A stretch of DNA of 64,000 bases from Deltaproteobacteria bacterium (GTDB lineage Bacteria; Myxococcota_A; Polyangia; Nannocystales; Nannocystaceae). The translations under genes and the position numbers were made by a program. This document shows positions 22,090-34,587 of the stretch, one piece after another. Where the stretch lies: positions 1,413,414-1,477,413 of the forward strand of contig JADJRA010000001.1 of NCBI GenBank assembly GCA_016712475.1, read 5' to 3'. The notes below the pieces were generated by a model that did no database searches, was not told the DNA's origin, and was given only the letters and a program-made list of their open reading frames with translations. Position 1 is the first letter of the stretch. Each line of letters opens with the position of its first letter.

Positions 22090-22500
22090 ATGCCCCGCAA
22101 TCGAATCCTGTTCCTGCTGCTGGCCCCCGTCCTCGCGCTCTCGGCGTGCAAGAAGGACTCGGCCGTCCAAGAGACCATCGACCTGCTGGACAAGCACAGC
22201 AAGGAGATCAAGGCGAAGGTCACCGACGCCACCGACAAGAAGGCGGGCGTGGCCGAGGCGCAGAAGTACATCGACGCCAACAAGGACGACATCGCCAAGC
22301 GCATCAAGGAGATGGGCGAGCTGAAGGGCTTCCAGGTCAGCGAGGAGATGCAGTCCAAGATGGCCTCGTCGCTGGTCGACGCCGCCTTCATGTGCAGCAA
22401 GATTCAGGTCGACCTGATGTCCGCCACGATGGAGGACAAGGACCTCGACGCCTCGCTCGAGAAGCTCTGCAAGACCTGGGACGACGCCGTCAAGATCTGA
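22090..22500 (+). CDS. Small hypothetical lipoprotein (136 aa, Lys/Asp-rich helical)
   Basis: ATG at 22090 preceded by ggagaga; MPRNRILFLLLAPVLALSAC lipobox; charged helical remainder. Confidence 0.55.
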   Translation: MPRNRILFLLLAPVLALSACKKDSAVQETIDLLDKHSKEIKAKVTDATDKKAGVAEAQKYIDANKDDIAKRIKEMGELKGFQVSEEMQSKMASSLVDAAFMCSKIQVDLMSATMEDKDLDASLEKLCKTWDDAVKI

Positions 22501-22551
22501 CGCTCGACGCACAAGGACGCGCACGCGACCTGAGCCTTTCTCCGGTCCCGA

Positions 22552-22594
22552 GAGGCCCGACGGCTAACCCCCGCCGGGCCTTCTGCGTTGGTTG
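22552..22594 (+). terminator. Candidate intrinsic terminator downstream of the bactofilin-lipoprotein pair
   Basis: aggcccgacgg-ctaacccc-cgccgggcct hairpin (about 11-bp stem, one mismatch) followed by ttctgcgttggttg; coordinates approximate. Confidence 0.35.
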
Positions 22595-23435
22595 CTCAGC
22601 GATAGCTCATGTGCAGATCGCAGCGCGTCGGCGTGAACGAGGCCACGCGCACGCGGACGTCCTTCTCGCCGCCGAGCTCGAGCGCGGCCTGCACGGCGGT
22701 CGCGTAGCAGCGCGCGATGAGCTCGGGCACGAGGTGCGGCGGATAGTCGATGACCCAGAAGTCACCGTTAGGGCGTCGCTACGCCCGCGAGGTGATGCCA
22801 CGATGCATGCGCGCGAAGATGTCGCGCCCGCAGCTGCGACCTTCCCTGCCGACAGTCGCAGGAGAGACCGTCGAAGGACCTTGCGGTCGCAGCGACGCAG
22901 CTCGACCGGTCGATCGCGCGGGGCACCGCCGAGTTCCGCGACGCACTACGACATTCGGCCGCTGCGCTGCCCGCGGTCGTCGTGCTCGGCCTTAGCACGC
23001 TTGGCGGACACCCGAGAACAGACTACGGACCACGGGCGACAGCCCGCTTCATGACGCCGTCCAGCCCGTCCCACGTCACCGCAGCAGGCGCGCAACGCCC
23101 GAGATGCCGGCCTCGTTCAGCCAGTCGATCACGAGGCCTCGAAGATCATGGATTTGCGGCTCCCCGGGAGAATTCGTGGGTCGATCGCAGCGTTGCGTGA
23201 GGCCGAGTTGTCGGTCCTGCCCCCGTCGTCCCCCTGCACGGGACCCGAGCCGCGGGCCGATTGGCCAATCGTCAGACCACACGAGCGAGTACGATCTTTC
23301 CTCACGACTTACGGAAGAACCATCTACTCTCGACCTACGGCAGGCCGTTGTAGTCACCGTGTCCCCTCGCTCGGCCAAAAGGCCACTAGTCAGCAGCTTG
23401 CGCGTACGCTCGAATCGGAGCATTGAACGACCCAA

Positions 23436-23470
23436 TTGACTTGACGCAGTCCCAGAACCCCGCTAGATAT
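23436..23470 (+). promoter_or_regulatory. Candidate sigma70-type promoter upstream of the first island gene (TTGACG, 17 nt, TAGATAT)
   Basis: ttgacttgacg cagtcccagaaccccgc tagatat read directly about 70 nt upstream of the ATG at 23539; the -35 element is near consensus, the -10 is weak. Confidence 0.3.
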
Positions 23471-23538
23471 GCACTACGCATGTGGCTCAGGCAGCAAGGA
23501 CATCCCACGCAATGCGCAAACCAACCCTGGGCGGCCAT

Positions 23539-24000
23539 ATGAATCGCAGATCGTGTATAGCCATTCTGTTTGTTGCTGGGTCGGGACTAGGCCTTGCGCT
23601 TCACCCTACGACTTGGTCGTTTGCGATGGCTGAAACCCCGCGCAATTCGCCCGTCCCGGCCCCCTATTCGAAGAGCGGGGAAGCAGAGGTCTCGCGCGCA
23701 AGCGCAACTGACACGCTGAGCTCGTGCACATGGGAAACCTTCAGCAGCACAACATCGGCTCTCGTCAATGCGGCGTGTCCGATACCTGCCAAGCGCGTAA
23801 TCTCCGGCGGCTGCATCAGTAGCGCCTCGGGGCGCAAACTGATTTGGATGCACCCATACGAGGAGGCCGCAATTGGGTCGCTTCCACTGCCCGACAACGG
23901 AGAGTGGTGGCACGCAACCGACGGCAACACAGGCTGGTCGTGCAACTTCTCCTCGTCTGGGACTACGAATACCGCGCTGGCGCTTTGTTGCGGCACCTAG
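23539..24000 (+). CDS. Small secreted Cys-rich protein, family A paralog 1 (C-terminal ...GWSC...LCCG motif)
   Basis: ATG at 23539 gives MNRRSCIAILFVAGSGLGLALHP (signal peptide); the about 110-aa mature domain shares C.W, CP, ISGGC, TGWSC and LCCG landmarks with the next two ORFs; lower-GC context. Confidence 0.6.
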   Translation: MNRRSCIAILFVAGSGLGLALHPTTWSFAMAETPRNSPVPAPYSKSGEAEVSRASATDTLSSCTWETFSSTTSALVNAACPIPAKRVISGGCISSASGRKLIWMHPYEEAAIGSLPLPDNGEWWHATDGNTGWSCNFSSSGTTNTALALCCGT

Positions 24001-24067
24001 TTGCAATCAGCGTAGTCAGCCACTACGGATCGCGTCTGCCAGAAGGCGCTGAAAGACGATCAGCACA

Positions 24068-24649
24068 GTGAACACACGGACAACAATGAGTCTTGTAGCC
24101 GGCGCCGGGCTTGCGTTGTTTCTGCTAGTCGGAGCAGGAGTGGCGGGCGCTCAGGCCGAGATCACGAACTCTGCCGACAACTATTCACCCCGTCTCAATG
24201 ACGGGACTGTTGGGGATGGCCGCGATGGCCGCAGCAGCAACACGCCAGCGGCCAACACCGACGAACTTCGCAGCGATGCAGTCGCGGTGCTCGCAGACTC
24301 GACTGACCATCTAAACAGTTGCGGCTGGCGTACGACCAGCGCATCGTGTGACTGCATCACGAATGATTGCGGAGCACTTCCGAATCACTGTGGGTACACG
24401 GTTGCATGCCCGGTTGGAGAGGCGGCAATCTCCGGCGGCTGCCGAATTTCGGGCGACTCAAGCGTCGAACTTCTTTCAAGTCGTGTGTATTCAAACTCGT
24501 CACCACTTCAGCTACTATATGCGACTGTTTGGTGGGGAGTGAGCGCAAATACTGGCTGGAGCTGCGAATTTGACAACGTAGACACGATGCCTTCCGGTTG
24601 GCCGCCAGTGTTTCCTACGATTGAAGTCACGGCGCTTTGCTGTGGATAG
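24068..24649 (+). CDS. Small secreted Cys-rich protein, family A paralog 2
   Basis: Signal peptide ...MSLVAGAGLALFLLVGAGVAGAQA (start GTG at 24068 or ATG at 24086); conserved SCGW, ACP, ISGGC, TGWSCEF, ALCCG; ends 38 nt before paralog 3. Confidence 0.6.
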   Translation: MNTRTTMSLVAGAGLALFLLVGAGVAGAQAEITNSADNYSPRLNDGTVGDGRDGRSSNTPAANTDELRSDAVAVLADSTDHLNSCGWRTTSASCDCITNDCGALPNHCGYTVACPVGEAAISGGCRISGDSSVELLSSRVYSNSSPLQLLYATVWWGVSANTGWSCEFDNVDTMPSGWPPVFPTIEVTALCCG

Positions 24650-24687
24650 CACGTCCAAGGTCCTCATCGCGAATAGGCATATACGTC

Positions 24688-25170
24688 ATGGCACCAGTGC
24701 ATCTTTCCAAAGGCCGGCCAGGTCGGGGACACCACTTTCAGCTTGTCTTGCTGTTCCTGTGCTCCGCAAGTTGCTCTTCGTTGGACCAAGGCGACGATAA
24801 GCCTATTCCGGCGACCCCGAACGATGACGACGGAGATAGCGAATCGGCCGACGACGATGAAGCCGTGGAACGGGCAGGGGCGTCCGATGAATTGGACACT
24901 TGCTGGTGGGTAGCATCACCGAATGGTGGCACGTCGGTCGGCACCGACTTTACGGTGAACTGCCCGGCGTCAAGACGGCCAATTGCAGGCCATTGCATGC
25001 ACACCGGCTCCGCGCAGCTAACGGATTCACACCCGTTCGAAGCGAGCAATGCATCGAATCTCCCAGAAGCTGGGGAGTCCTGGTACTCGACTAGTAGCAC
25101 GGCGGGATGGCGCTGCGCTTACGACGCTTCGGTGTCAGCACAGATCGGCGTACTTTGTTGCGGATCATAG
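24688..25170 (+). CDS. Small secreted Cys-rich (lipo)protein, family A paralog 3
   Basis: ATG at 24688 gives MAPVHLSKGRPGRGHHFQLVLLFLCSASC (signal plus possible lipobox); conserved TCWW, NCP, IAGHC, AGWRCAY, VLCCGS. Confidence 0.6.
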   Translation: MAPVHLSKGRPGRGHHFQLVLLFLCSASCSSLDQGDDKPIPATPNDDDGDSESADDDEAVERAGASDELDTCWWVASPNGGTSVGTDFTVNCPASRRPIAGHCMHTGSAQLTDSHPFEASNASNLPEAGESWYSTSSTAGWRCAYDASVSAQIGVLCCGS

Positions 25171-25642
25171 AAGGCTCGCTGTCCTGACTCTGGCGTTCGC
25201 AGGAACACATGATTTTGCGTTGGCGGGCGTCCGTGATACGCTTGCCGTGACGCGCCGCGCGGGTGACTATGTGGCACGGGATCTCGTCCAGGCAGAGGTG
25301 CTCTGGATCGTCGGTGTGTTCGCGATCAGCGAACTGTGATTGAGGCGGAGGTCGTCTCGTTCGTTCGCTCCCGGGTCGACTCCGCGGCTCCGCCATCGCG
25401 AACTCGCGGGTGTGCACGTTGGTGCGGTTGCCAGGTCGGGTCCACCTGGATCGACTTCGTGTGCTGATTCAGAGATTCGCGGGAGAAGCCGCTGCGCGCG
25501 CAATGCGCGAGCAGTGGTGCGCGATGGAGGCGAGGATGTCGTCGGCGCTCTTGGTCCAGGCGGACGGCTTCGGCTCGTCGTTGGTGCAGTGTCCGTGCGC
25601 CGGACCGCGTGCGTGGTTGAAGCAGCCGCGGGGCTTCCCGGT

Positions 25643-27249
25643 TCAGCCGCGCGCAGACTTCCAGCTCGCCGGCAGTAGATCTGCCGCGTCGGCCTCGCGG
25701 ACGCGCCGCGAGAGCCGAGCGAGCACGTCGGTGAGGTACGCGACCGGGTCGACGTCGGCGAGCATGCAGCAGCCGAGGATCGTGTACACCGCCGCAGCTC
25801 GGACGCCGCCGGCATCCGAGCCCGCGAAGAGGAAGTTCTTGCGGGTGAGTGCGACGCGGACATGCATGCGTTCGACGGCACCGTTGTCGAGCGGGATGTC
25901 TGGATCGTCGAGGAACCGGAGCAGCGCGTCTTGGTGGTTGAGCACGTATCGGATCCCACCGCCCATCGGTGACTTCGGCGGTTCGAAGGGTTGGTGCGTC
26001 TCGCACCAGCGGATCAGTTCGCCGCAGACTGCCGCGCTCTTCGTGGCGCGCTCGGCGTGCCGCGCTTCGCGATCGAGACCGCGGATCTCGTCTTCGATCT
26101 GGTACAGCACCTTGTACGCCGAGACCGGCAGCGAGGCGCGATCGTCTCCGGCCTCGAGCGCGGCGACGAACTTCCGACGTGCGTGCATGTTGCACCCGCA
26201 CTCGATGATGTCGTCGCGCGCGAAGCTCTTGTCGAAGAGCGTCGCAGCGTCCGCGACCGTATAGCCCTTGCGCAGCCTCAACAGATCCTCGGGACCGATC
26301 TCGCCTTCGCGCTGCCCGACCTTCTTGCCGGTGCTCGCGTAGAAGTAGAACGCCGAGTCGTCGCCGACGCAGCCCCACAGCGAGCCGATTCGCTTGCCCG
26401 TGCCGACGCGCTTGTTGGTGCCATCGCGGTCGAGCACCGGCAGACCTGTGCCGTCGATATGCATGATCTTCGCCGCGAGCGTGCGCTCCTTCGCGGCGCG
26501 CACGAGCGGTGCCAGCAGCTCCGTCGCCCACGTCACCTGATCGGCGAGCGTCGACACCGACAGCTCGACACCGAGACGCCCGAAGCGATCGCGCTGCCGA
26601 TGCAGCGGCAGGCCATCGCGGTACTTCTCGACGAGCAGATTGGCGACGAGCGCACAGCCCATCCGTCCGCCCTGGACCACCTTGTCGCCCAGCGGCGCGC
26701 GCACGACCTCGGCCTCGCAGTCGTCGCACGCCAGCTTCTCGCGGCTGTCGACGCGTATACGATCACCTCGGCCGGGATCAAGTCGAGGATCTCGGTCGTG
26801 TCGTGCCCGATGCACCGCCGCTCCTTGCCGCATCGCGGGCACGGCCGAGCAGCGGTCGGCACGACGATCGGGTTCGGAATCCGCCGCAAGTTCGCCGGCA
26901 GCGGGCGGCGAAGCGGCGGCTGAGGAGGCGCCGGCGTGCCTCCGCGCGCCGCAGGTGCGACCTCCTCGCTGGTCTCGCGCAGCTTCTGATCCGCTGCGTC
27001 GCGGGTCGCGTCGCCGGTGCTCGCGAGGCTCTCGAGCAGCAACGCGAGCTGAGCCGTCGACACGCCCTCGTTCGTGCGACGAGGTGAGCGAAGCTCGGCG
27101 AGCTTGCGTTCGAGCTCGCTGTTGCGGGCAACGAGCTTCGACACGAGCTCGAGCACCGTGTCGAGCTGGCCCTTGTCGAGCAGCTCGCGAAGCACCTCGA
27201 GCACGGGGGCGCGCTTCGTCGTCGTGCTTGCCGATCCCGTCTTGCTCAT
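25643..27249 (-). pseudogene. tnpC: IS66 transposase TnpC, disrupted by a frameshift near 26745-26757
   Basis: The N-terminal leucine-zipper and Zn-finger part (MSKTGSAS...CPRCGKERRCIGHDTTEILDLIPAEVIVY) is in the frame of ORF 26533..27387. The DDE catalytic part (REKLACDDCEAEVVRAPLG...LPLHRQ...HIDGTG...CNMHARRKF...) is in the frame of ORF 25643..27289. Both read through the same stretch gatcgtatacgcgtcgac in different frames. Confidence 0.7.
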
Positions 27250-27337
27250 GCCGACGTCGACACCATAGCGGCGTCCGGCGCCGCGGCAACCGAAAATCAT
27301 CGCACGCCCGCGTGTGGTTGCGCGCGGTCGCCCGGCA

Positions 27338-27706
27338 TCACGCGCGTGCGTGCATCGGCGGCTCCCATCGACGTGACGCGCGAGCACGTGTGATGTCGAT
27401 GCCCTCGAGTAGCATCGAGAGCTCGTGCACGTCGATCTCGACCGTCGACACCTCTTCGGCCACGCGCTGTGGAAACGTGAAAGTGCCCCGCTCGAGCCGC
27501 TTGTGCACGATCGTGAAGCCGCCGCGCGTGTACACCAGAAGCTTCACCTGGGTCTTGCGCCGGTTGAGGAAGACGAAGACGTGCCCGCTCAGCGGATCTT
27601 GCGCGAGCACGCTGCGAACGTCGGCACTCAGCCCGTCGAACGATCGCCTCAAGCTCACCGGCGACGTCGCGACGTACACCTTCACTGCCCGCAGCAGCAG
27701 GATCAC
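27338..27706 (-). CDS. tnpB: IS66 Orf2 (TnpB)
   Basis: ...VKVYVATSPVSLRRSFDGLSADVRSVLAQDPLSGHVFVFLNRRKTQVKLLVYTRGGFTIVHKRLERGTF matches the IS66 Orf2 consensus (DMRK(S/G)FDGL); GTG start at 27706 overlaps the tnpA stop (GTGA). Confidence 0.7.
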   Translation of the reverse strand: MILLLRAVKVYVATSPVSLRRSFDGLSADVRSVLAQDPLSGHVFVFLNRRKTQVKLLVYTRGGFTIVHKRLERGTFTFPQRVAEEVSTVEIDVHELSMLLEGIDITRARASRRWEPPMHARA

Positions 27707-28053
27707 GTCTTCGGCCTCAAGGTGATCATCTCCGAGACGAGTTGAGCGAGCCACTGTGCCGACACACGATCGGCGCGCACCTCGATCTCGACCTCGCCGA
27801 CGTGCACCACGACCTCGGCCACCACCGCCGGCTCGGACGCCAGCATCGGGACGAACTTGACCGCGCCGCGCGTGCCCTCCGTCGCGACGCGCCGCTTCCA
27901 CCACCGCAGCCTCCCGCTGCCGAGCTCATGCCGCCGCTCGAACTCCGCGAGCGTCAAACCACTGCGCTTCCACGCGCGAACTGCTGCGCGGCCATCGGCC
28001 GTCGTCCATCGCACCCCGCTCGCCGGCGCCGTCCACTCGCTCCCGCGTGACAT
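27703..28053 (-). CDS. tnpA: IS66 Orf1 (TnpA, HTH protein)
   Basis: 116 aa; ...AWKRSGLTLAEFERRHELGSGRLRWWKRRV... is typical of IS66 orf1; first gene inside the IR-bounded element. Confidence 0.7.
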   Translation of the reverse strand: MSRGSEWTAPASGVRWTTADGRAAVRAWKRSGLTLAEFERRHELGSGRLRWWKRRVATEGTRGAVKFVPMLASEPAVVAEVVVHVGEVEIEVRADRVSAQWLAQLVSEMITLRPKT

Positions 28054-28182
28054 GCCCGCGAGCGTGCACGATCACTGGGCGGCCACGCGGGTGCGCTCGG
28101 GCGGACGGACACCTCCCGCGTGACATGCCCGCGAGCGTGCACGATCACTGGCGGCCACGCGGGTGCGCTCGGGCGGACGGAC
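28037..28182. repeat. About 73-bp tandem duplication (2 copies) near the tnpA-proximal end of the IS66 element
   Basis: ctcccgcgtgacatgcccgcgagcgtgcacgatcactgg(g)cggccacgcgggtgcgctcgggcggacggacac occurs twice in a row (read directly; coordinates approximate). Confidence 0.6.
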
Positions 28183-28400
28183 ACGCGCGTGGCTGAACCG
28201 GGAAGCCCCGCGGCTGCGTCAACCACGCACGCGGTCCGGCGGACGGACACCCACGGTCGTCGAGCACGAGCGCGGTCGGTCGAGATGGTCGCGCTTCAGG
28301 GTTGTCGGTGGGCGGCCCAAAGCGGCGCGCGCCCAACGCGGCCGGCGTGCTATGAGCATGCTGGCTCGCGTGGGCGCGTCTCCGGGGTCAAGCGGCAGCG

Positions 28401-28811
28401 TCAGATTTGCTCGAGGCAGGAGGCCGGCGGAGAGAGTCTCTCGAACCCGAGCTCGCCACGTGCAGAGGTCAGCTCAGCCACGATGGTTGAGTGTGGGACT
28501 TGCGCCATGCGCCCTACCATAAAGCCACGGTAGTTACGCACAGCTTCACGTGGGGTCAGTTGGCCGAGAGTGCCGGACGAGACCCACTCCGCCGTGAGGA
28601 CGTCGATCGCGAGCGCGGTGGCCTCCGACTTCGGCGGCGCAGGCACGTACTGCGATCGGATCTCAGCCACGCGTCGGGCGTCGAGAGTGTAGGTGCCGAC
28701 TCGAGCGACTGAGCAGTCCTCGCCCTCAGACGGACCGGGCGCCGGACCAGGAACCGGGCCTTTGCACGCCGGGCAGATCACGATCAGCAAGGTGAGGAAG
28801 TAGCGTTGCAT
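28401..28811 (-). CDS. Small hypothetical lipoprotein (136 aa), co-transcribed downstream of the island subtilisin
   Basis: ATG at 28811 with a strong AGGAGG RBS (revcomp of 28812-28830); MQRYFLTLLIVICPAC lipobox; lower-GC codon usage. Confidence 0.55.
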   Translation of the reverse strand: MQRYFLTLLIVICPACKGPVPGPAPGPSEGEDCSVARVGTYTLDARRVAEIRSQYVPAPPKSEATALAIDVLTAEWVSSGTLGQLTPREAVRNYRGFMVGRMAQVPHSTIVAELTSARGELGFERLSPPASCLEQI

Positions 28812-28820
28812 GACATCCTC

Positions 28821-31307
28821 CTAATCACCGCCGCCATCAGGCTCATTGTCCACTTCAGACGTGGCCATGCAGAAGACATGAACAACCGCAGACCCCGAAC
28901 TACTCACCCATTCTTTGTCGACGGTCACCTCGACGCACGTGTCCTCCACGTTGACCAGCGAGTCCTCGAACGCTACCATTTTCTTGTGATCGTGATCAGC
29001 GTTGATGCGCGTGTAGCTAGGAGTACCGTAGCCGACCGCGCAGGTGCCATTCCCCTGCTTCGGGCGCAGGCGCAGCTCGAGATCGATGCGACTGATGTTG
29101 TCCTTTCCGGACATGTCCTCGATCGCCATCATGACGCACTTGACCTCTTCGGTGCCCGTTGCAACAGGGCCACCAAAGGCGATGTATTGCTGGTCTGCGG
29201 TACCACTGGTGAATGTGTAGGTGTTGTACGAGAGCGCACCTCCCGCAAAGCTCGGCGAGCCGTTCGAAAGCAAGCGGAGCTTCGCTCGTCCGAGACCAAA
29301 GAGGTTGTCCGCACCCACGACGTTCTTCGTTCCCGAGCTGTTGCCCCGGTCACCCATGCCGAGCATCACCGTGTGCAAGCGTCCCACGTTCGAGATCCAC
29401 GTTTGGCCATCGTTCAGACCCCAGTCCTTGACGAGAGCCGCCATCCCGGCAACAGCCGGCGCGGCAAAACTCGTACCGACCCACTGCCCGGTGCTCACGC
29501 AGCCGTTGGTGCCGGAGCCCGAGGTTACGTAGTTCACGTAGGCAGATGGCGCCGCGAGGTCTGCCATGGACAACGCCCCGCCCACCGTCGTTCCGTCCGG
29601 CGACTGGATAGACCCACCGCCGCGACTCGCGTAGGTGTCGTCGATATCCATGACCGAGTACAACGTGTCGTCCGTGCTGAGCCCGTTGACCGAGAAGGTC
29701 TTGGGAATGTCCGCAGGGCTGGACATGTTGCACGACGATCCCGTCGTGCCGTTGTTCCCCGCCGATACCGCGATGAAGATGCCGTCGTCGAACGCGCCCT
29801 CGTAGGCGTCCTCGAGATCATAGCTCGAAGTCGCGTCACAGGTGGCGTTCGGATACGAATCACCATCATTCCAGCCGTTGCTACTGCTGATGATGCTCGT
29901 GAGATAGCAACTACCCGGACCGGATGGCGTGAGCTCAATGTCGATGCCCTGAAGGCAACTCGTTGACATCACGTGACGGCTCATCAGGGTGCTACCCTGG
30001 TGATCGAAGAACTGAACGACCGCCTCCTTTCCGTAGCCGCTCGCCGAGTTCTCCCACGAGGCACTGTGGTTCGTGGTGCTGTCGCAAACCGTCAAGCCTT
30101 GAGCCTGATCCTGGGTGTAGTCGCCGACAGCGATGGAGGACACGACGGTGCCGTGGTTGACGTTCGAGGCCTCCGAGTAGTTGGCTTGTGAGTAGCTCTC
30201 ACAGTACTCAACCCAACACTTCCACCGGCCAAGGAGCCGTTCAGTCTCGCATCCACTGTCGTCGTCAAAGAAGCACGCTTCGTCATTGAAGTGCCACTGC
30301 TCTTGGATGCCGATCGTGATTTGTCCCGCACCGTTTTCAGCGTTGAATCCGGCGTCGATGTACGTCTGAGCGTCAGTGTAGGAGCGCGAATCTCGATGGA
30401 TTCCGATCGCGCGGCTGCCGTGCGACTGAAGACCAACGTCGTCGAGATCGATCTTCGTGATGTCTTCGCGCGCCTGCAGCTCCTCCAACAGGCCCTTCGA
30501 GACAGAAGCGCCTAGCCACCCCGTGGTCCAGTGATAGACGCGGATCGTTCCGCCGCTTTCCACGATCTGTGCTGCCAATGACGACGACCGCTCCAAAAAT
30601 GCTTCCTCTCGCTCGGCCAGCGCGACTTCGCGCTGTTCGACCGCGGCAGCATACGTCTCTGCGCTCCACATCCCCACCTCAGGAAGTAGCGGAACATCCC
30701 AATCGGGGGCACCCCGCAACTTGATCAGCACGTCGAGGGAGTCATCCGGTCCAGCTTCCTCGGCCGCAGCGAGGAGGGTAGGACGCACCACGAGAGGCGC
30801 ATCGTCGGATGGTTCCGCAGGCGGGTCGACGTTTGGAACTCGAGTCACCCGATAGGTGTCGGTGCGCGTGCCTTCCGCGTCCACGACCGACGTTACCGTC
30901 TCTTCGTACAGGTACTCGTCCTGTAGGTGCGTATAGGGACGCGAGACCTTCCGCCAGGTCTCAAGGTCCAGCTCACCGACCTCCGTTGACGAGACCATCT
31001 CGCCACTTTCGTTCTCTACGAGAACCTTCTCGTACACCAACTCGCGTCCAGCATTAGCTGCGTCCGGATCTCGTACTTCGGTCTCGACATCGCCAGCACC
31101 GCCCGAGCTCCCTTCCTCAATCTCATCCGCGGGGAGGACTTCCGAGCGTGGGCTATGCAGCCCTCCCTCGGCACTGTCGACGGGCGCTCGGTCATCGCAG
31201 GCGGGCGCGAGAGCCAATGTGGATAGAGCCCACATGCGACGCAGGCACGTCCAGCGGTTCGCACGGGAATTGCCAATCGCAACAAGCTTCTTCGCCGAGG
31301 TTGACAT
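28821..31307 (-). CDS. Subtilisin-like serine protease (peptidase S8) with a long N-terminal pro-region and a C-terminal extension
   Basis: Catalytic motifs NHGTVVSSIAVGD (His), GTSFAAPAVAGMAALV (Ser) and a DAG Asp region; start taken at the ATG at 31307 (MSTSAKKLVAIGNSRANRWTCLRRMWALSTLALAPAC, a long K/R-rich n-region plus LAPAC lipobox-like end). The ORF opens at a TTG at 31445; an ATG near 31235 is an alternative. Confidence 0.7.
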   Translation of the reverse strand: MSTSAKKLVAIGNSRANRWTCLRRMWALSTLALAPACDDRAPVDSAEGGLHSPRSEVLPADEIEEGSSGGAGDVETEVRDPDAANAGRELVYEKVLVENESGEMVSSTEVGELDLETWRKVSRPYTHLQDEYLYEETVTSVVDAEGTRTDTYRVTRVPNVDPPAEPSDDAPLVVRPTLLAAAEEAGPDDSLDVLIKLRGAPDWDVPLLPEVGMWSAETYAAAVEQREVALAEREEAFLERSSSLAAQIVESGGTIRVYHWTTGWLGASVSKGLLEELQAREDITKIDLDDVGLQSHGSRAIGIHRDSRSYTDAQTYIDAGFNAENGAGQITIGIQEQWHFNDEACFFDDDSGCETERLLGRWKCWVEYCESYSQANYSEASNVNHGTVVSSIAVGDYTQDQAQGLTVCDSTTNHSASWENSASGYGKEAVVQFFDHQGSTLMSRHVMSTSCLQGIDIELTPSGPGSCYLTSIISSSNGWNDGDSYPNATCDATSSYDLEDAYEGAFDDGIFIAVSAGNNGTTGSSCNMSSPADIPKTFSVNGLSTDDTLYSVMDIDDTYASRGGGSIQSPDGTTVGGALSMADLAAPSAYVNYVTSGSGTNGCVSTGQWVGTSFAAPAVAGMAALVKDWGLNDGQTWISNVGRLHTVMLGMGDRGNSSGTKNVVGADNLFGLGRAKLRLLSNGSPSFAGGALSYNTYTFTSGTADQQYIAFGGPVATGTEEVKCVMMAIEDMSGKDNISRIDLELRLRPKQGNGTCAVGYGTPSYTRINADHDHKKMVAFEDSLVNVEDTCVEVTVDKEWVSSSGSAVVHVFCMATSEVDNEPDGGGD

Positions 31308-32147
31308 GCACAATTCTCCAGACCGGTGTTTCGGTCGGTTCGTCGGTACAGATCGTTGCCACGCCGCGCACATGTCCGCGCGCGGTGGCCCAGATTGGCC
31401 AAAACTCTGCGGCCGAGCATACGGCCGATTGGGCAGATGTGTCAACCGATGATTTTGCGTCAGAAGTATGAGTTCTTTACTCGGCGTCTAGCCGGGTCTA
31501 GCCGGACAATTTGCGGCGTCGGCAATGCAACACGGTTGGCATCGTTGGGTGTCAAAGTGACGCTCTCCGGGAGAATAGTCGCGCGGTTTCCGTACGCTGC
31601 GCACCTTCGCCAGCGCTGAACCAAGGCGAGGTAAGGAAGAGACCAGCGTGATGCTTCAATAATTCGCCGGCGGCCGGGGAGCGAGCGCCACCGACCTTTC
31701 AGCTCCTGTGGCACGCTACGTCCGAAGTGGGATGGCAACGTCGCAGACGTCGTGGACGACACCAGGCGGCTCACCGCGATCGCGATTGCCCCCCTCGTCT
31801 CTCGGCCGGTGCGCATTCACTGGTTGTGCAGCTCGGCAGGAAGTCAGTCAGAAGGAAGACAGCGAGCGCTCCGTGTAGAAGCTCACAAGTGGCCATTGGA
31901 TCACTCGGCTTGGACCTCAACACCGGTTACCGGGGGCCTTGAGCTACTGCTCGTCTTGCCGTGGAGGCCGTTCCCCTGGGAGAGAGTTCGTGGGCGGTCG
32001 GGTAGATCGTCGAGTAGCGACATGAGGACCGAGGGCGCGCAGCCACCCGTGTCGATGTCGCGAATCTGTGACAGGCGCACCAAGCGCAGCGCTTCGCTGC
32101 GCTTGGCATACCTGGACATGACGTGGCGGTGGTGGCATGCTCAGCGC

Positions 32148-32663
32148 ATGGCAAGATTGTGGTCGCATCCAGCGACTTCGTTTGTTTGTCTCCTATCACT
32201 GAGCTGTTCGGACCGGAAAGGCGGCGATGAGGGCGTGGCGTCTAACACCGCCTCAAGCTCGGACGGGGATGGCGAGAACGGGAACTCCGAGGGTTCTTCC
32301 ACGACGAGCGAAGCACTCGGGGTCGAGGATTGCGAAGGTCTCCTTGTCGAGGCCGACTGCAACAACGCCATGCTCGCCGATGTTGGCCAATGCATGTGGG
32401 TCCCGAGATACGCACCGGCGCCCGGCGTGACAAGCTGCGGAGCACAAGACGCAACGGAGGCGTGCGTTGGAATCATCGGTAGTCAGCAGGGATGCGGGCT
32501 GTATTCTTGTCCTGGCGATGAAGGCGTCAATATCTACTATCGACAAGCAGATGGCGGAATTGAACTGTTCGTCAGCCCTCTGTGCGGCCCGGAACCTGTC
32601 GGGGGGTGGATGGCGTGCCAGGCAAACATCCCCGAGTGTTCTTGTCCCTGCTCTGCTAATTAG
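32148..32663 (+). CDS. Secreted Cys-rich lipoprotein, family B paralog 1
   Basis: ATG at 32148 gives MARLWSHPATSFVCLLSLSCSDRKGG (lipobox); mature domain with about 14 Cys (EDCEGLLVEADC...CVGIIGSQQGCGLYSCPGDEG...LCGPEPVGGWMACQ...ECSCPCS) collinear with the next ORF. Confidence 0.6.
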   Translation: MARLWSHPATSFVCLLSLSCSDRKGGDEGVASNTASSSDGDGENGNSEGSSTTSEALGVEDCEGLLVEADCNNAMLADVGQCMWVPRYAPAPGVTSCGAQDATEACVGIIGSQQGCGLYSCPGDEGVNIYYRQADGGIELFVSPLCGPEPVGGWMACQANIPECSCPCSAN

Positions 32664-32670
32664 GAGGCAT

Positions 32671-33105
32671 ATGAAGCGCGCATGCCTGATCCTGCATGTT
32701 ACCTTGCTGGGAGTGACAGCCTGCACCCAGACTGAGCTTGAAGACTGCGAGAAGATTCAGCACGAGTCAAAATGTGAAGATGCCGATGTTGATGGCGCGG
32801 GTGCCTGTCATTGGGTCGAGGCCTATCGGCCGTCTGTGTCGGAAACCGCATGCGAAGTGGGCGAGCCGACCGGCTTGTGCGTCGGCATCGGAGGCACCCA
32901 ACAGGGCTGCGGTCTCTTTGGGTGCGAGCCAGGGTCCGAAGATGAATCGGCGAACCTCTACTTCCGCCATGATGGCCCGCAGGTCGAAGTGTTCGGCAGC
33001 CCAGAGTGCGGCCCCGAGCCAGTCGGCGATTGGACCGCTTGCTCGAGCGCCGACGCGCCGGCCGAGTGTAGTTGTCTGTGCGGCGTCGCAGAGCCGCCCT
33101 CGTAG
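32671..33105 (+). CDS. Secreted Cys-rich lipoprotein, family B paralog 2
   Basis: ATG at 32671 preceded by taggaggcat (AGGAGG RBS); MKRACLILHVTLLGVTAC lipobox; EDCEKIQHESKC...CVGIGGTQQGCGLFGCEPGSED...ECGPEPVGDWTACS...ECSCLCG matches paralog 1 motif for motif. Confidence 0.65.
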   Translation: MKRACLILHVTLLGVTACTQTELEDCEKIQHESKCEDADVDGAGACHWVEAYRPSVSETACEVGEPTGLCVGIGGTQQGCGLFGCEPGSEDESANLYFRHDGPQVEVFGSPECGPEPVGDWTACSSADAPAECSCLCGVAEPPS

Positions 33106-33169
33106 GGCCGGCGCCGCTAACTTACGATGCGGCATGTGTCAACGAGAATGAGATTTTTGGGTTGAGAGT

Positions 33170-34183
33170 TTAGTGAAGTCCGAGCTCGCTCTCCGAGCGA
33201 TTCTCGGGTGGGTTGATCCAGACTGCCTTGGGGAGCGTGGGCACCTGCGGTGGGCCTGCGACGAAGCGCTCTGGGTTCTTCGCGAAGGCTTCGTTCATCA
33301 CGAGCTGGCGCTGCGCGAGGACCTCGGTGGCGCGCCCGAAGAAGACGTCGGCGGGAGTGAGGCGAGCGATGCCGGAGTGCCGGTGCTCGTCGTTGTACCA
33401 GGCGAAGAAGCGCCGGCAGAAGTCGCGCGCGTGGTCGAAGCTCTCGAAGCGCTCCGGGAAATCTGGGTGCGACTTGAGGGTGTGGAACTCGGACTCGGAG
33501 TGCGGGTTGTCGTTGCTGACGCGCGGTCGGCTGAACGACGCCGTGATCTCGAGGTCGCGCAGCAGCTGCTTCACAGTCTTGCCCCTGGGCACGGGCCCGC
33601 GGTCGGCGTGCAGCTTGAGCGTGCCCGGTTCGATCCCGTGGCGGTTGCACGCCTCGCGGATCAGCTTCGCCGCGAGCTCGCCGCTCTCCTCGTGGGCGAG
33701 CATCCAGCCCGGGTTGTAGCGGCTGAAGAGATCGATGATCACGTACAGCGGGTAGTAGGTGTACTTCACCGGACCGCGCAGCCACGTCACGTCCCACGTC
33801 CAGACCTGGTTGGGTGCCGTGGCGATCAGTTCGGGTCGCGCGTACTTTGGGTGCCGGGCTTGATCGCGGCGCTCGCGGATCTCGTCCTGCAGCGCCAGAA
33901 TCCGATACATCGTGCGGGGATGGCAGAGGTAGTGCTGCTCGTCGAGCAACGTGGCGTGCACGGTCGCCGGCGCCTTGTCGACGAAGCGCTCGGAGTGGAG
34001 CACCTCAAGCACGTTGGTCCGCTCGGCTTCGGAGAGCGCGCGTGAAGGTCGTCGACGTGGTCGGCGGGGGCCATGCAGGGCCGGCTGCCGCCAGCGGTAC
34101 GCAGTGCTCCGCGGCACGCCGAGCGCCTCGCAGGCGACCGCCACGCCGAGCTGGTCCGCGAGTTCGTCGACCGCTGCCTTCAC
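33170..34183 (-). CDS. IS3-family transposase OrfB (DDE integrase core; expressed as an OrfAB fusion by -1 frameshift)
   Basis: ...WTWDVTWLRG...YPLYVIIDLFSRYNPGWML...HADRGP...YNDEHRHSGI... is the rve/DDE core; the frame is open upstream of the first Met into the orfA 3' end. Confidence 0.75.
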   Translation of the reverse strand: MKAAVDELADQLGVAVACEALGVPRSTAYRWRQPALHGPRRPRRRPSRALSEAERTNVLEVLHSERFVDKAPATVHATLLDEQHYLCHPRTMYRILALQDEIRERRDQARHPKYARPELIATAPNQVWTWDVTWLRGPVKYTYYPLYVIIDLFSRYNPGWMLAHEESGELAAKLIREACNRHGIEPGTLKLHADRGPVPRGKTVKQLLRDLEITASFSRPRVSNDNPHSESEFHTLKSHPDFPERFESFDHARDFCRRFFAWYNDEHRHSGIARLTPADVFFGRATEVLAQRQLVMNEAFAKNPERFVAGPPQVPTLPKAVWINPPENRSESELGLH

Positions 34184-34587
34184 GTCGGCTCCTCGGTGTC
34201 GTCGCTGTCCAGCCCCAACACCTCCGAGAGTTTTTTTTGGACCTCGATGATCTTCTCGGCCTTGCGCAGCTTCTCGCGCAGGCGCTCGTTGTCACGCCGC
34301 AGCTTCTCCAGCTCGGCCTGCTCCGCCGTCTGCTTCGGCTTGGGTCCGCGTTTGCGCTCCAACGCCTTCAACGTACCCTCGAGCCTCTGCCCGCGCCAGC
34401 TCGTGAGGTGCGACGAGTACAGGCCCTCTCGCCGCAGCAGTGCGCCCACTTCGCCCGGCTTCGTGCAGGCGTCGGCATCCTGCAGCACGCGCAGCTTGTA
34501 CTCCTTCGTGAAGCGCCGCCGATGCGCTCTCTCTCGGGTCTCCGTCTCGACCTTCCGTGGGTTCGCGCTCGATGTCATTTCGTACAT
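34180..34587 (-). CDS. IS3-family transposase OrfA (HTH / leucine zipper)
   Basis: 135 aa ...RRRFTKEYKLRVLQDADACTKPGEVGALLRREGLYSSHLTSWRGQ...; ends with QKKL encoded by CAA AAA AAA CTC; the A-AAA-AAA heptamer (minus strand, + coordinates about 34231-34237) is a canonical -1 slippery site into the orfB frame. Confidence 0.75.
   Translation of the reverse strand: MYEMTSSANPRKVETETRERAHRRRFTKEYKLRVLQDADACTKPGEVGALLRREGLYSSHLTSWRGQRLEGTLKALERKRGPKPKQTAEQAELEKLRRDNERLREKLRKAEKIIEVQKKLSEVLGLDSDDTEEPT

Follow-up and report, generated by a model that had tools for sequence, protein, structure and literature searches.

Which kind of protein is encoded by three small, cysteine-rich genes that follow each other on one strand of the genome of an uncultured myxobacterium, and are the three products parts of one assembly? 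The genes, here called A, B and C (together, the triad), lie in a stretch of 64,000 nucleotides of a Deltaproteobacteria bacterium (Nannocystaceae; assembly GCA_016712475.1, contig JADJRA010000001.1, positions 1,413,414 to 1,477,413 of the forward strand), which is referred to as the window. It is found that they encode paralogs of one six-cysteine domain preceded by export signals, that the predicted structure of this domain resembles resistin and the C-terminal modules of PCSK9, and that the A-B-C set is old; the three chains may form a single threefold head.

Three paralogous genes for one six-cysteine domain

In the list of open reading frames (ORFs) of the window, three successive ORFs are found on the + strand (23482-24000 for A, 24068-24649 for B and 24637-25170 for C), in which the genes are placed as follows:

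23512-24000, + strand: gene A, 162 residues from ATG 23512 (153 residues from the alternative ATG 23539); six-Cys domain at 23698-23997
N-terminus of gene A, + strand: cleavable signal peptide of the signal-peptidase-I type, lipobox absent, then a short linker
24068-24649, + strand: gene B, 193 residues from GTG 24068 (gene callers: ATG 24086, 187 residues); domain at 24293-24646
N-terminus of gene B, + strand: signal peptide ending AQA/E, then a linker of about 50 residues
about 24344-24397, + strand: four-Cys insert in the domain of gene B, between Cys1 and Cys2, specific to the B type; a second insert precedes the last strand
24688-25170, + strand: gene C, 160 residues from ATG 24688; six-Cys domain at 24874-25167
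about 24751-24774, + strand: near-canonical lipobox LLFLCSASC in the N-terminal signal peptide of gene C, followed by an acidic linker

The likeliest start of gene A is ATG 23512, not ATG 23539; an AAGGA lies 11 nt before it, and the gene callers chose this start for P0002, the database protein that is identical to A. Hydrophobic export signals are seen at the N-termini of A, B and C, where signal peptides and lipoboxes, like those of the relatives, were called by inspection and not by a predictor. The signal peptides of A, of B and of their orthologs are of the ordinary cleavable kind, and lipoboxes are found only in the C-type proteins, being canonical in two cases (LLAC, IGAC) and near-canonical in two others (LANC and the SASC of the window).

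The three proteins align collinearly, and the invariant landmarks are SC.W (with Cys1), CP (Cys2), I(S/A)G.C (Cys3), an internal Trp, GW.C (Cys4) and LCCG (Cys5 and Cys6). The pairwise BLASTP E-values are 2e-11 (A-B), 1e-14 (A-C) and 2e-8 (B-C), so that the paralogy is far beyond chance. The sequence-only reading of this DNA had described three tandem same-strand paralogs of a small exported Cys-rich family, open to refutation if the shared motifs were not collinear or not significant, and this description stands. The four additional cysteines of B are located in its insert, SCDCITNDCGALPNHCG, and the B-type orthologs P0045, P0050 and P0058 also have an insert with extra cysteines.

The locus recurs at 99.95-100% identity in contigs of six sequencing runs. 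The possibility of spurious ORFs is ruled out by conservation, by ratios of nonsynonymous to synonymous substitution rates (dN/dS) below 1 and by the presence of the locus in six or more sequencing runs; all three genes are real and under purifying selection. The A, B and C proteins of the window are not found in the NCBI protein sets that were searched, and the deposited annotations may lack the three genes. The database entries identical to A and B (P0002 and P0003) have no NCBI source, and P0001, a 95%-identical variant of C, is listed from Logan only.

A family without a curated model

A, B and C have no match in Pfam (E <= 10), NCBIfam, PHROGs or the PDB sequences, in agreement with the earlier proposal that they fall outside the characterised families. 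For PCSK9, the Pfam models PCSK9_C1, C2 and C3 describe the modules M1-M3 of its C-terminal Cys/His-rich domain (CHRD). A word-indexed search of 5.8 billion proteins returns only eight proteins, three of which are the window's own or near-identical to them, and further word-index protein searches add few members. When a profile of the domain is used for a HMMER search of 1.84 billion cluster representatives, 114 are found at E <= 1e-3 and 42 at E <= 1e-10. The consensus over 100 domains is sC.W...Cp.g..viSGGC...S.P.E...nlPeDGe.w...tGW.C...A.ALCCg, in which the six Cys columns are 99-100% conserved, and A, B and C score 96, 63 and 86 bits, respectively, with the family hidden Markov model (HMM).

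This bacterial 'SC.W ... LCC' family is uncurated and is defined in the present analysis; a curated-library model for it is lacking. The relatives that have a source name come from Archangium sp. and from metagenome-assembled genomes (MAGs) of Myxococcota, and they are labelled 'hypothetical protein', with the exception of one 'collagen-like protein'. Pattern scans of 185,579 GTDB species-representative genomes, of JGI metagenome contigs and of viral contigs detect no relatives.

The predicted fold and the cysteine framework

Structure models were predicted for the domain of A and then for that of C, covering the domains and the last few residues that precede them. Both independent models indicate the fold of resistin and of the PCSK9 C-terminal modules, as the six-stranded beta-sandwich of a PCSK9 CHRD module and the head-domain fold of resistin and RELM are each recognised in the predicted structures. 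The highest Foldseek probability is obtained for the PCSK9 C-terminal domain (0.98, TM 0.52). From these models it is very probable that the domain of the window has the resistin/PCSK9-module fold, and the earlier remark that the Cys pattern is not recognised as any known fold has to be revised, also because the six cysteines fit the published motif of the PCSK9 modules in number and order.

The C-terminal domain of PCSK9 consists of three tightly packed modules, which are structurally homologous to the resistin homotrimer (PMC9113161). Its modules share the motif C-x17-19-C-x8-9-C-x18-25-C-x11-23-CC, in which the disulfide bridges connect cysteines 1-6, 2-5 and 3-4 (PMC9113161). The corresponding spacings are 16, 11, 42, 14 and 0 in A and 19, 10, 39, 13 and 0 in C, with family medians of 16, 10, 39, 15 and 0. 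When compared with the published motif, three of the four intervals are in range or at most two residues off, and the Cys3-Cys4 interval is well outside. The number and order of the cysteines and the terminal CC agree, and the framework appears to be that of the PCSK9 modules with a longer Cys3-Cys4 loop. On the predicted models, the landmarks that had been listed from the sequence are Cys1 to Cys6 and the strands around them, and by analogy 'LCCG' would most simply be read as a vicinal Cys pair that staples the last strand to Cys1 and Cys2. A role of the C-terminal CCG(S/T) as a prenylation-like or sorting tag is ruled out, as Sec signals are present and the CC aligns with the disulfide-forming CC of the PCSK9 modules.

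The following points weigh against this fold assignment or against a common origin with the vertebrate proteins. The alignments behind the two models are shallow, with 9 and 13 sequences, and Foldseek reports nothing at E <= 0.001. Compared with PCSK9, the Cys3-Cys4 loop has 15-20 additional residues, and in model A it is the region of lowest confidence (pLDDT of about 51-71). A family HMM built from 73 sequences finds neither resistin nor PCSK9 among the PDB sequences; the matches that it does return there, mitochondrial uL18 and a capsid protein, are chance only. The hhalign comparisons are not significant, neither with the PCSK9 modules (P 0.007-0.025, probabilities 2-6%) nor with resistin (P 0.018 and 0.0028, probabilities 2.5-11%), where only the CP.G..V.G.C stretch is aligned. 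The registers of these alignments are consistent, being centred on this same stretch, and the short bacterial repeats align from Cys2 to Cys5. Shared ancestry with vertebrate resistin and PCSK9 is therefore unproven, and the family of the window is best described, on the basis of the predicted models, as having the same fold class and Cys framework without demonstrated membership of either vertebrate family. A full-text literature search found no description of a bacterial resistin-like or PCSK9-like domain family.

The A-B-C set is old

The same gene order is preserved in a second locus, L001, which carries an A-type (P0005, 60% identical to A), a B-type (P0045, 46%) and a C-type gene (P0006, 57%). 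The intergenic gaps are 67 and 38 nt in the window and 36 and 10 nt in L001, and such short gaps fit a single transcript. In the JGI contig of P0004, an A-type gene and the B-type gene P0050 precede a third gene, which is truncated where the contig stops. Orthologs are 46-60% identical, versus 31-43% between the paralogs of the window. A recent local duplication as the origin of the triad is thus not upheld, as each of the three types has its orthologs in other lineages, in the same order; A-B-C is an old, conserved set and probably an operon.

Three genes in a row are present in the window, in L001 and in L005, where the array is more distant, the middle gene is damaged and the contig is frameshift-prone. 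Pairs are found in L004, L012 and L014, and L015 and L016 are probable singletons.

Selection can be followed in L013, a 94.35%-identical strain (L013 1-999 versus window 24195-25203) that covers part of B and all of C and in which every Cys is kept. The dN/dS values, from small counts, are 0.41 in the domain of B, 0.16 in that of C and 0.44-0.97 in the linkers. In L013, the linker of B has also lost three residues of its GDGRDGR stretch through a deletion of 9 nt (window 24215-23). The linkers are relaxed and evolve faster than the domains; the diversifying selection that the sequence-only reading had suggested is not seen, with dN/dS below 1 against the close strain and no sign of positive selection.

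Relatives with threefold architectures

At least 11 of the 114 cluster representatives have three tandem modules on one chain. The three modules are located behind a trypsin-like peptidase in P0077 and P0089 and behind an M64 peptidase in P0052. A short, four-Cys form of the domain, with about 70 residues close to the size of a PCSK9 module and differing mainly by a 19-residue loop, is homologous to the triad family (hhalign 98.4%, E 6e-15). Three tandem copies of this short form, without Pfam coverage, end the M64 and trypsin-like peptidases and the Archangium proteins among P0052, P0077, P0089, P0112 and P0069. The long form occurs as a three-domain fusion in P0024 and as two-domain fusions in P0011 and P0019.

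In P0062, P0063, P0100 and P0108 the domain is at the C-terminal end of long repeat proteins; these distant, fibre-like relatives match neither solved structures nor informative phage families significantly. In L012 (6001-6976, from the Myxococcota MAG GCA_039815665.1), two adjacent lipoproteins of the family follow an FG-GAP-repeat protein. In both, the lipobox Cys is separated from the six-Cys domain by about 11 collagen-like G-X-Y triplets, and one of them is the protein named 'collagen-like protein' by NCBI. Collagen repeats form obligate triple helices.

Genomic context

The features around the triad are:

23436-23469, + strand: upstream stretch with the proposed promoter, a tandem TTGAC-TTGAC, a 17-nt spacer and TAGATA, without sigma-70 support
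25589-28250, - strand: complete IS66-family element, 2662 bp; terminal inverted repeats of 66 nt, 95% complementary (Pfam DDE_Tnp_IS66, TnpB_IS66)
25643-27289, 27338-27904 and 27703-28071, - strand: the IS66 genes tnpC, tnpB and a small upstream ORF
28821-31307, - strand: S8 subtilase lipoprotein, 828 residues from ATG 31307 (stretch to 31445), lipobox LAPAC (Pfam Peptidase_S8)
31752-32663: ORF with no family match
33170-34183, - strand: rve-type integrase gene

Upstream of the triad, core genes for EPSP synthase, a tRNA methyltransferase-like protein, bactofilin and a lipoprotein are found. A near-consensus promoter had been proposed upstream of the first gene. This is not borne out: the -35 hexamer TTGACG (23441-23446) matches at five of six positions, the -10 hexamer TAGATA matches at only three of six, and a promoter scan of 22400-25700 reports no site. 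The tandem TTGAC-TTGAC repeat itself (23436-23446) is located about 65-75 nt before the likely start of gene A, and it could be the site of a regulator or of an alternative sigma factor rather than a sigma-70 -35 box.

The G+C fraction is 0.586 for the triad and 0.606 for the S8 gene, with 0.694 for the window as a whole, and the low-GC stretch continues past the S8 gene (31446-34300, about 61%). This suggests that the triad and the S8 gene are part of a larger mobile or acquired island, and it is probable that the triad sits in an acquired island. The IS66 element, which separates the triad from the S8 gene and lies 419 nt past gene C, is regarded as context and not as part of the system. In the family contig L002, an IS66_C fragment is located just downstream of the C-type gene. 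The S8 protein, which has long unannotated N- and C-terminal regions, exactly matches MBK6922331.1 of NCBI ('S8 family serine peptidase [Deltaproteobacteria bacterium]'). The accession numbers of this peptidase and of the lipoprotein upstream of the triad differ by only five in four MAGs of NCBI (MBK6922326 to MBK6922331; compare window 22090-31307). Two proteins encoded near the triad match MAG proteins of NCBI exactly, and these MAGs bear the label 'Deltaproteobacteria bacterium', an older name under which myxobacteria were included, in keeping with a myxobacterial host.

Upstream of the array of L005 (7493-9665), a gene of the MbnB/TglH/ChrH family (DUF692) on the opposite strand and a gene with a YHS domain are observed; the DUF692 family is known for the modification of cysteines in peptides. 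Downstream of that array, a coiled-coil protein and a membrane AAA_16/AAA_22 ATPase are encoded, with no sign that these neighbours are conserved.

A model for the A, B and C chains and its alternatives

The operon would encode three distinct chains, all built on one type of exported beta-sandwich domain that is stapled by disulfides. As in PCSK9, the vicinal CC that ends the last strand would be bonded to Cys1 and Cys2, and Cys3 to Cys4, such that 'LCCG' would serve as a structural staple and not for sorting or lipidation. Once the chains are exported by Sec and oxidatively folded, A and B would be soluble and C lipid-anchored. The three heads would then probably assemble in a 1:1:1 ratio about a pseudo-threefold axis, in the manner of the resistin homotrimer and of the M1-M2-M3 pack of PCSK9, and this membrane-tethered head, on flexible linkers, would bind a ligand and act as a recognition or adhesion module of the cell envelope. 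The disulfide connectivity, the formation of the heterotrimer, its location and its binding function are what we infer, and the complete statement, an old three-chain operon for a resistin-like head in which an A:B:C heterotrimer is tethered by the lipid of C and binds a ligand, is given an even chance of being correct. Around the triads and pairs no ligand and no conserved partner gene are found, and the pairs and singletons (L012, L014, L015) mean that a three-chain stoichiometry is not universal in the family; both observations lower the expectation.

It is also conceivable, although somewhat unlikely, that A, B and C do not assemble together and that each works alone or as a homo-oligomer, the three being related binding proteins or adhesins that differ in specificity or location. 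This would agree with the separate export signal and linker on each gene, with the pairs and probable singletons among the relatives, with the collagen-stalked relatives, which could make homotrimers, and with resistin, itself a homotrimer (PMC9113161). Three observations are easier to understand when considering one assembly: the three orthologous types are kept in the same order across separate lineages, the single-chain relatives very often have exactly three modules, and the lipid anchor is found on one type only. The S8 gene raises a different possibility, namely a 'split PCSK9': the triad would be a separated unit of a protease system, with a targeting or regulatory role, and its three modules would associate with the subtilase lipoprotein at 28821-31307 (-) and direct it to a substrate or a surface. 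In PCSK9, three such modules follow a subtilase domain (PMC9113161), so that by analogy the proximity is suggestive and the S8 lipoprotein is a possible partner; bacterial relatives do fuse three modules behind trypsin-like and M64 peptidases, and the S8 gene shares the low-GC island of the triad and was its immediate neighbour until the IS66 element inserted. However, the triad and the S8 gene are convergent and not co-oriented. The link is further weakened because the right-hand neighbourhood of the triad is not conserved in L013, where the similarity to the window ends 33 nt past gene C and other genes lie downstream. Moreover, no peptidase is called beside the arrays of L005 and L012, and Pfam scans of three neighbours show none (L001 is too short to tell). 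A split protease system of this kind is therefore considered very unlikely.

RELM-beta and resistin are bactericidal and permeabilise membranes, and by analogy the three proteins might be secreted antibacterial effectors that attack membranes in predation or competition. This is judged equally improbable: no immunity gene, secretion-system gene or toxin domain is near the triad, one of the chains is predicted to be a lipoprotein of the producer itself, and the similarity with RELM-beta is at the level of the fold only, with no amphipathic or pore-forming feature identified. The heterotrimeric, lipid-tethered head of A, B and C is the preferred description.

Significance

To our knowledge, the resistin/PCSK9-CHRD fold has so far been discussed as a vertebrate feature, and the binding target of the PCSK9 tail is still debated. 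A bacterial family with the same predicted fold and Cys framework would give the fold an evolutionary context. The family spans proteins with a protease plus three modules, fibre tips, collagen-stalked lipoproteins and a conserved three-gene set, and would provide simple systems in which the packing of three such modules, and the ligands that they bind, can be studied. For the myxobacteria, it would be a new class of envelope or secreted recognition proteins, now labelled 'hypothetical' except for the one 'collagen-like protein'. The boldest version is held to be unlikely: a myxobacterial superfamily, not described before, that shares true common descent with the head of resistin and the modules of the PCSK9 CHRD, that includes protease-plus-three-module proteins prefiguring PCSK9, and whose threefold unit is split in this operon into three co-evolving chains of an obligate, lipid-tethered A:B:C heterotrimer, a bacterial counterpart of C1q-style recognition heads. 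If true homology and the heterotrimer were both established, a prokaryotic origin or reservoir would be given to the vertebrate-hormone/PCSK9 fold, which could then be studied in a tractable bacterial model.

Comparison with known systems

The modules of the PCSK9 CHRD are fused behind a subtilase as three tandem copies on one chain, whereas the units of the window come from three genes, which all have a predicted export signal of their own, one of them with a predicted lipid anchor, and the nearby S8 gene is convergent. The CHRD is His-rich, unlike the domains of the window. Resistin has an invariant signature of 10-11 cysteines, in contrast to the six conserved cysteines found here. Its N-terminal coiled coil drives the formation of trimers and hexamers, whereas the linkers of the window proteins are of low complexity, acidic or rich in Pro and Gly, and appear disordered. 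Resistin is known from vertebrates, and the window proteins are without a Pfam match in a library that is assumed to include a resistin model.

The fibre proteins MAT of Bdellovibrio are trimeric and recognise targets by variable tips (PMC10769870). P0062, P0063, P0100 and P0108 resemble such trimeric fibres with variable tips, which is a likeness only; the MAT paper describes no resistin-like tip (PMC10769870), and the proteins of the window have no fibre shaft.

Both structural neighbours of the domain, resistin and the PCSK9 tail, are threefold assemblies. In C1q, the A, B and C chains are encoded by three clustered genes and form a collagen stalk with a heterotrimeric globular head. The triad would resemble it in having three paralogous chains from adjacent genes and, as proposed, a single heterotrimeric head, and some of its relatives have G-X-Y stalks. 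It is best seen as a bacterial version of a known class of folds, in an unusual split, three-gene form, rather than as a categorically new system.

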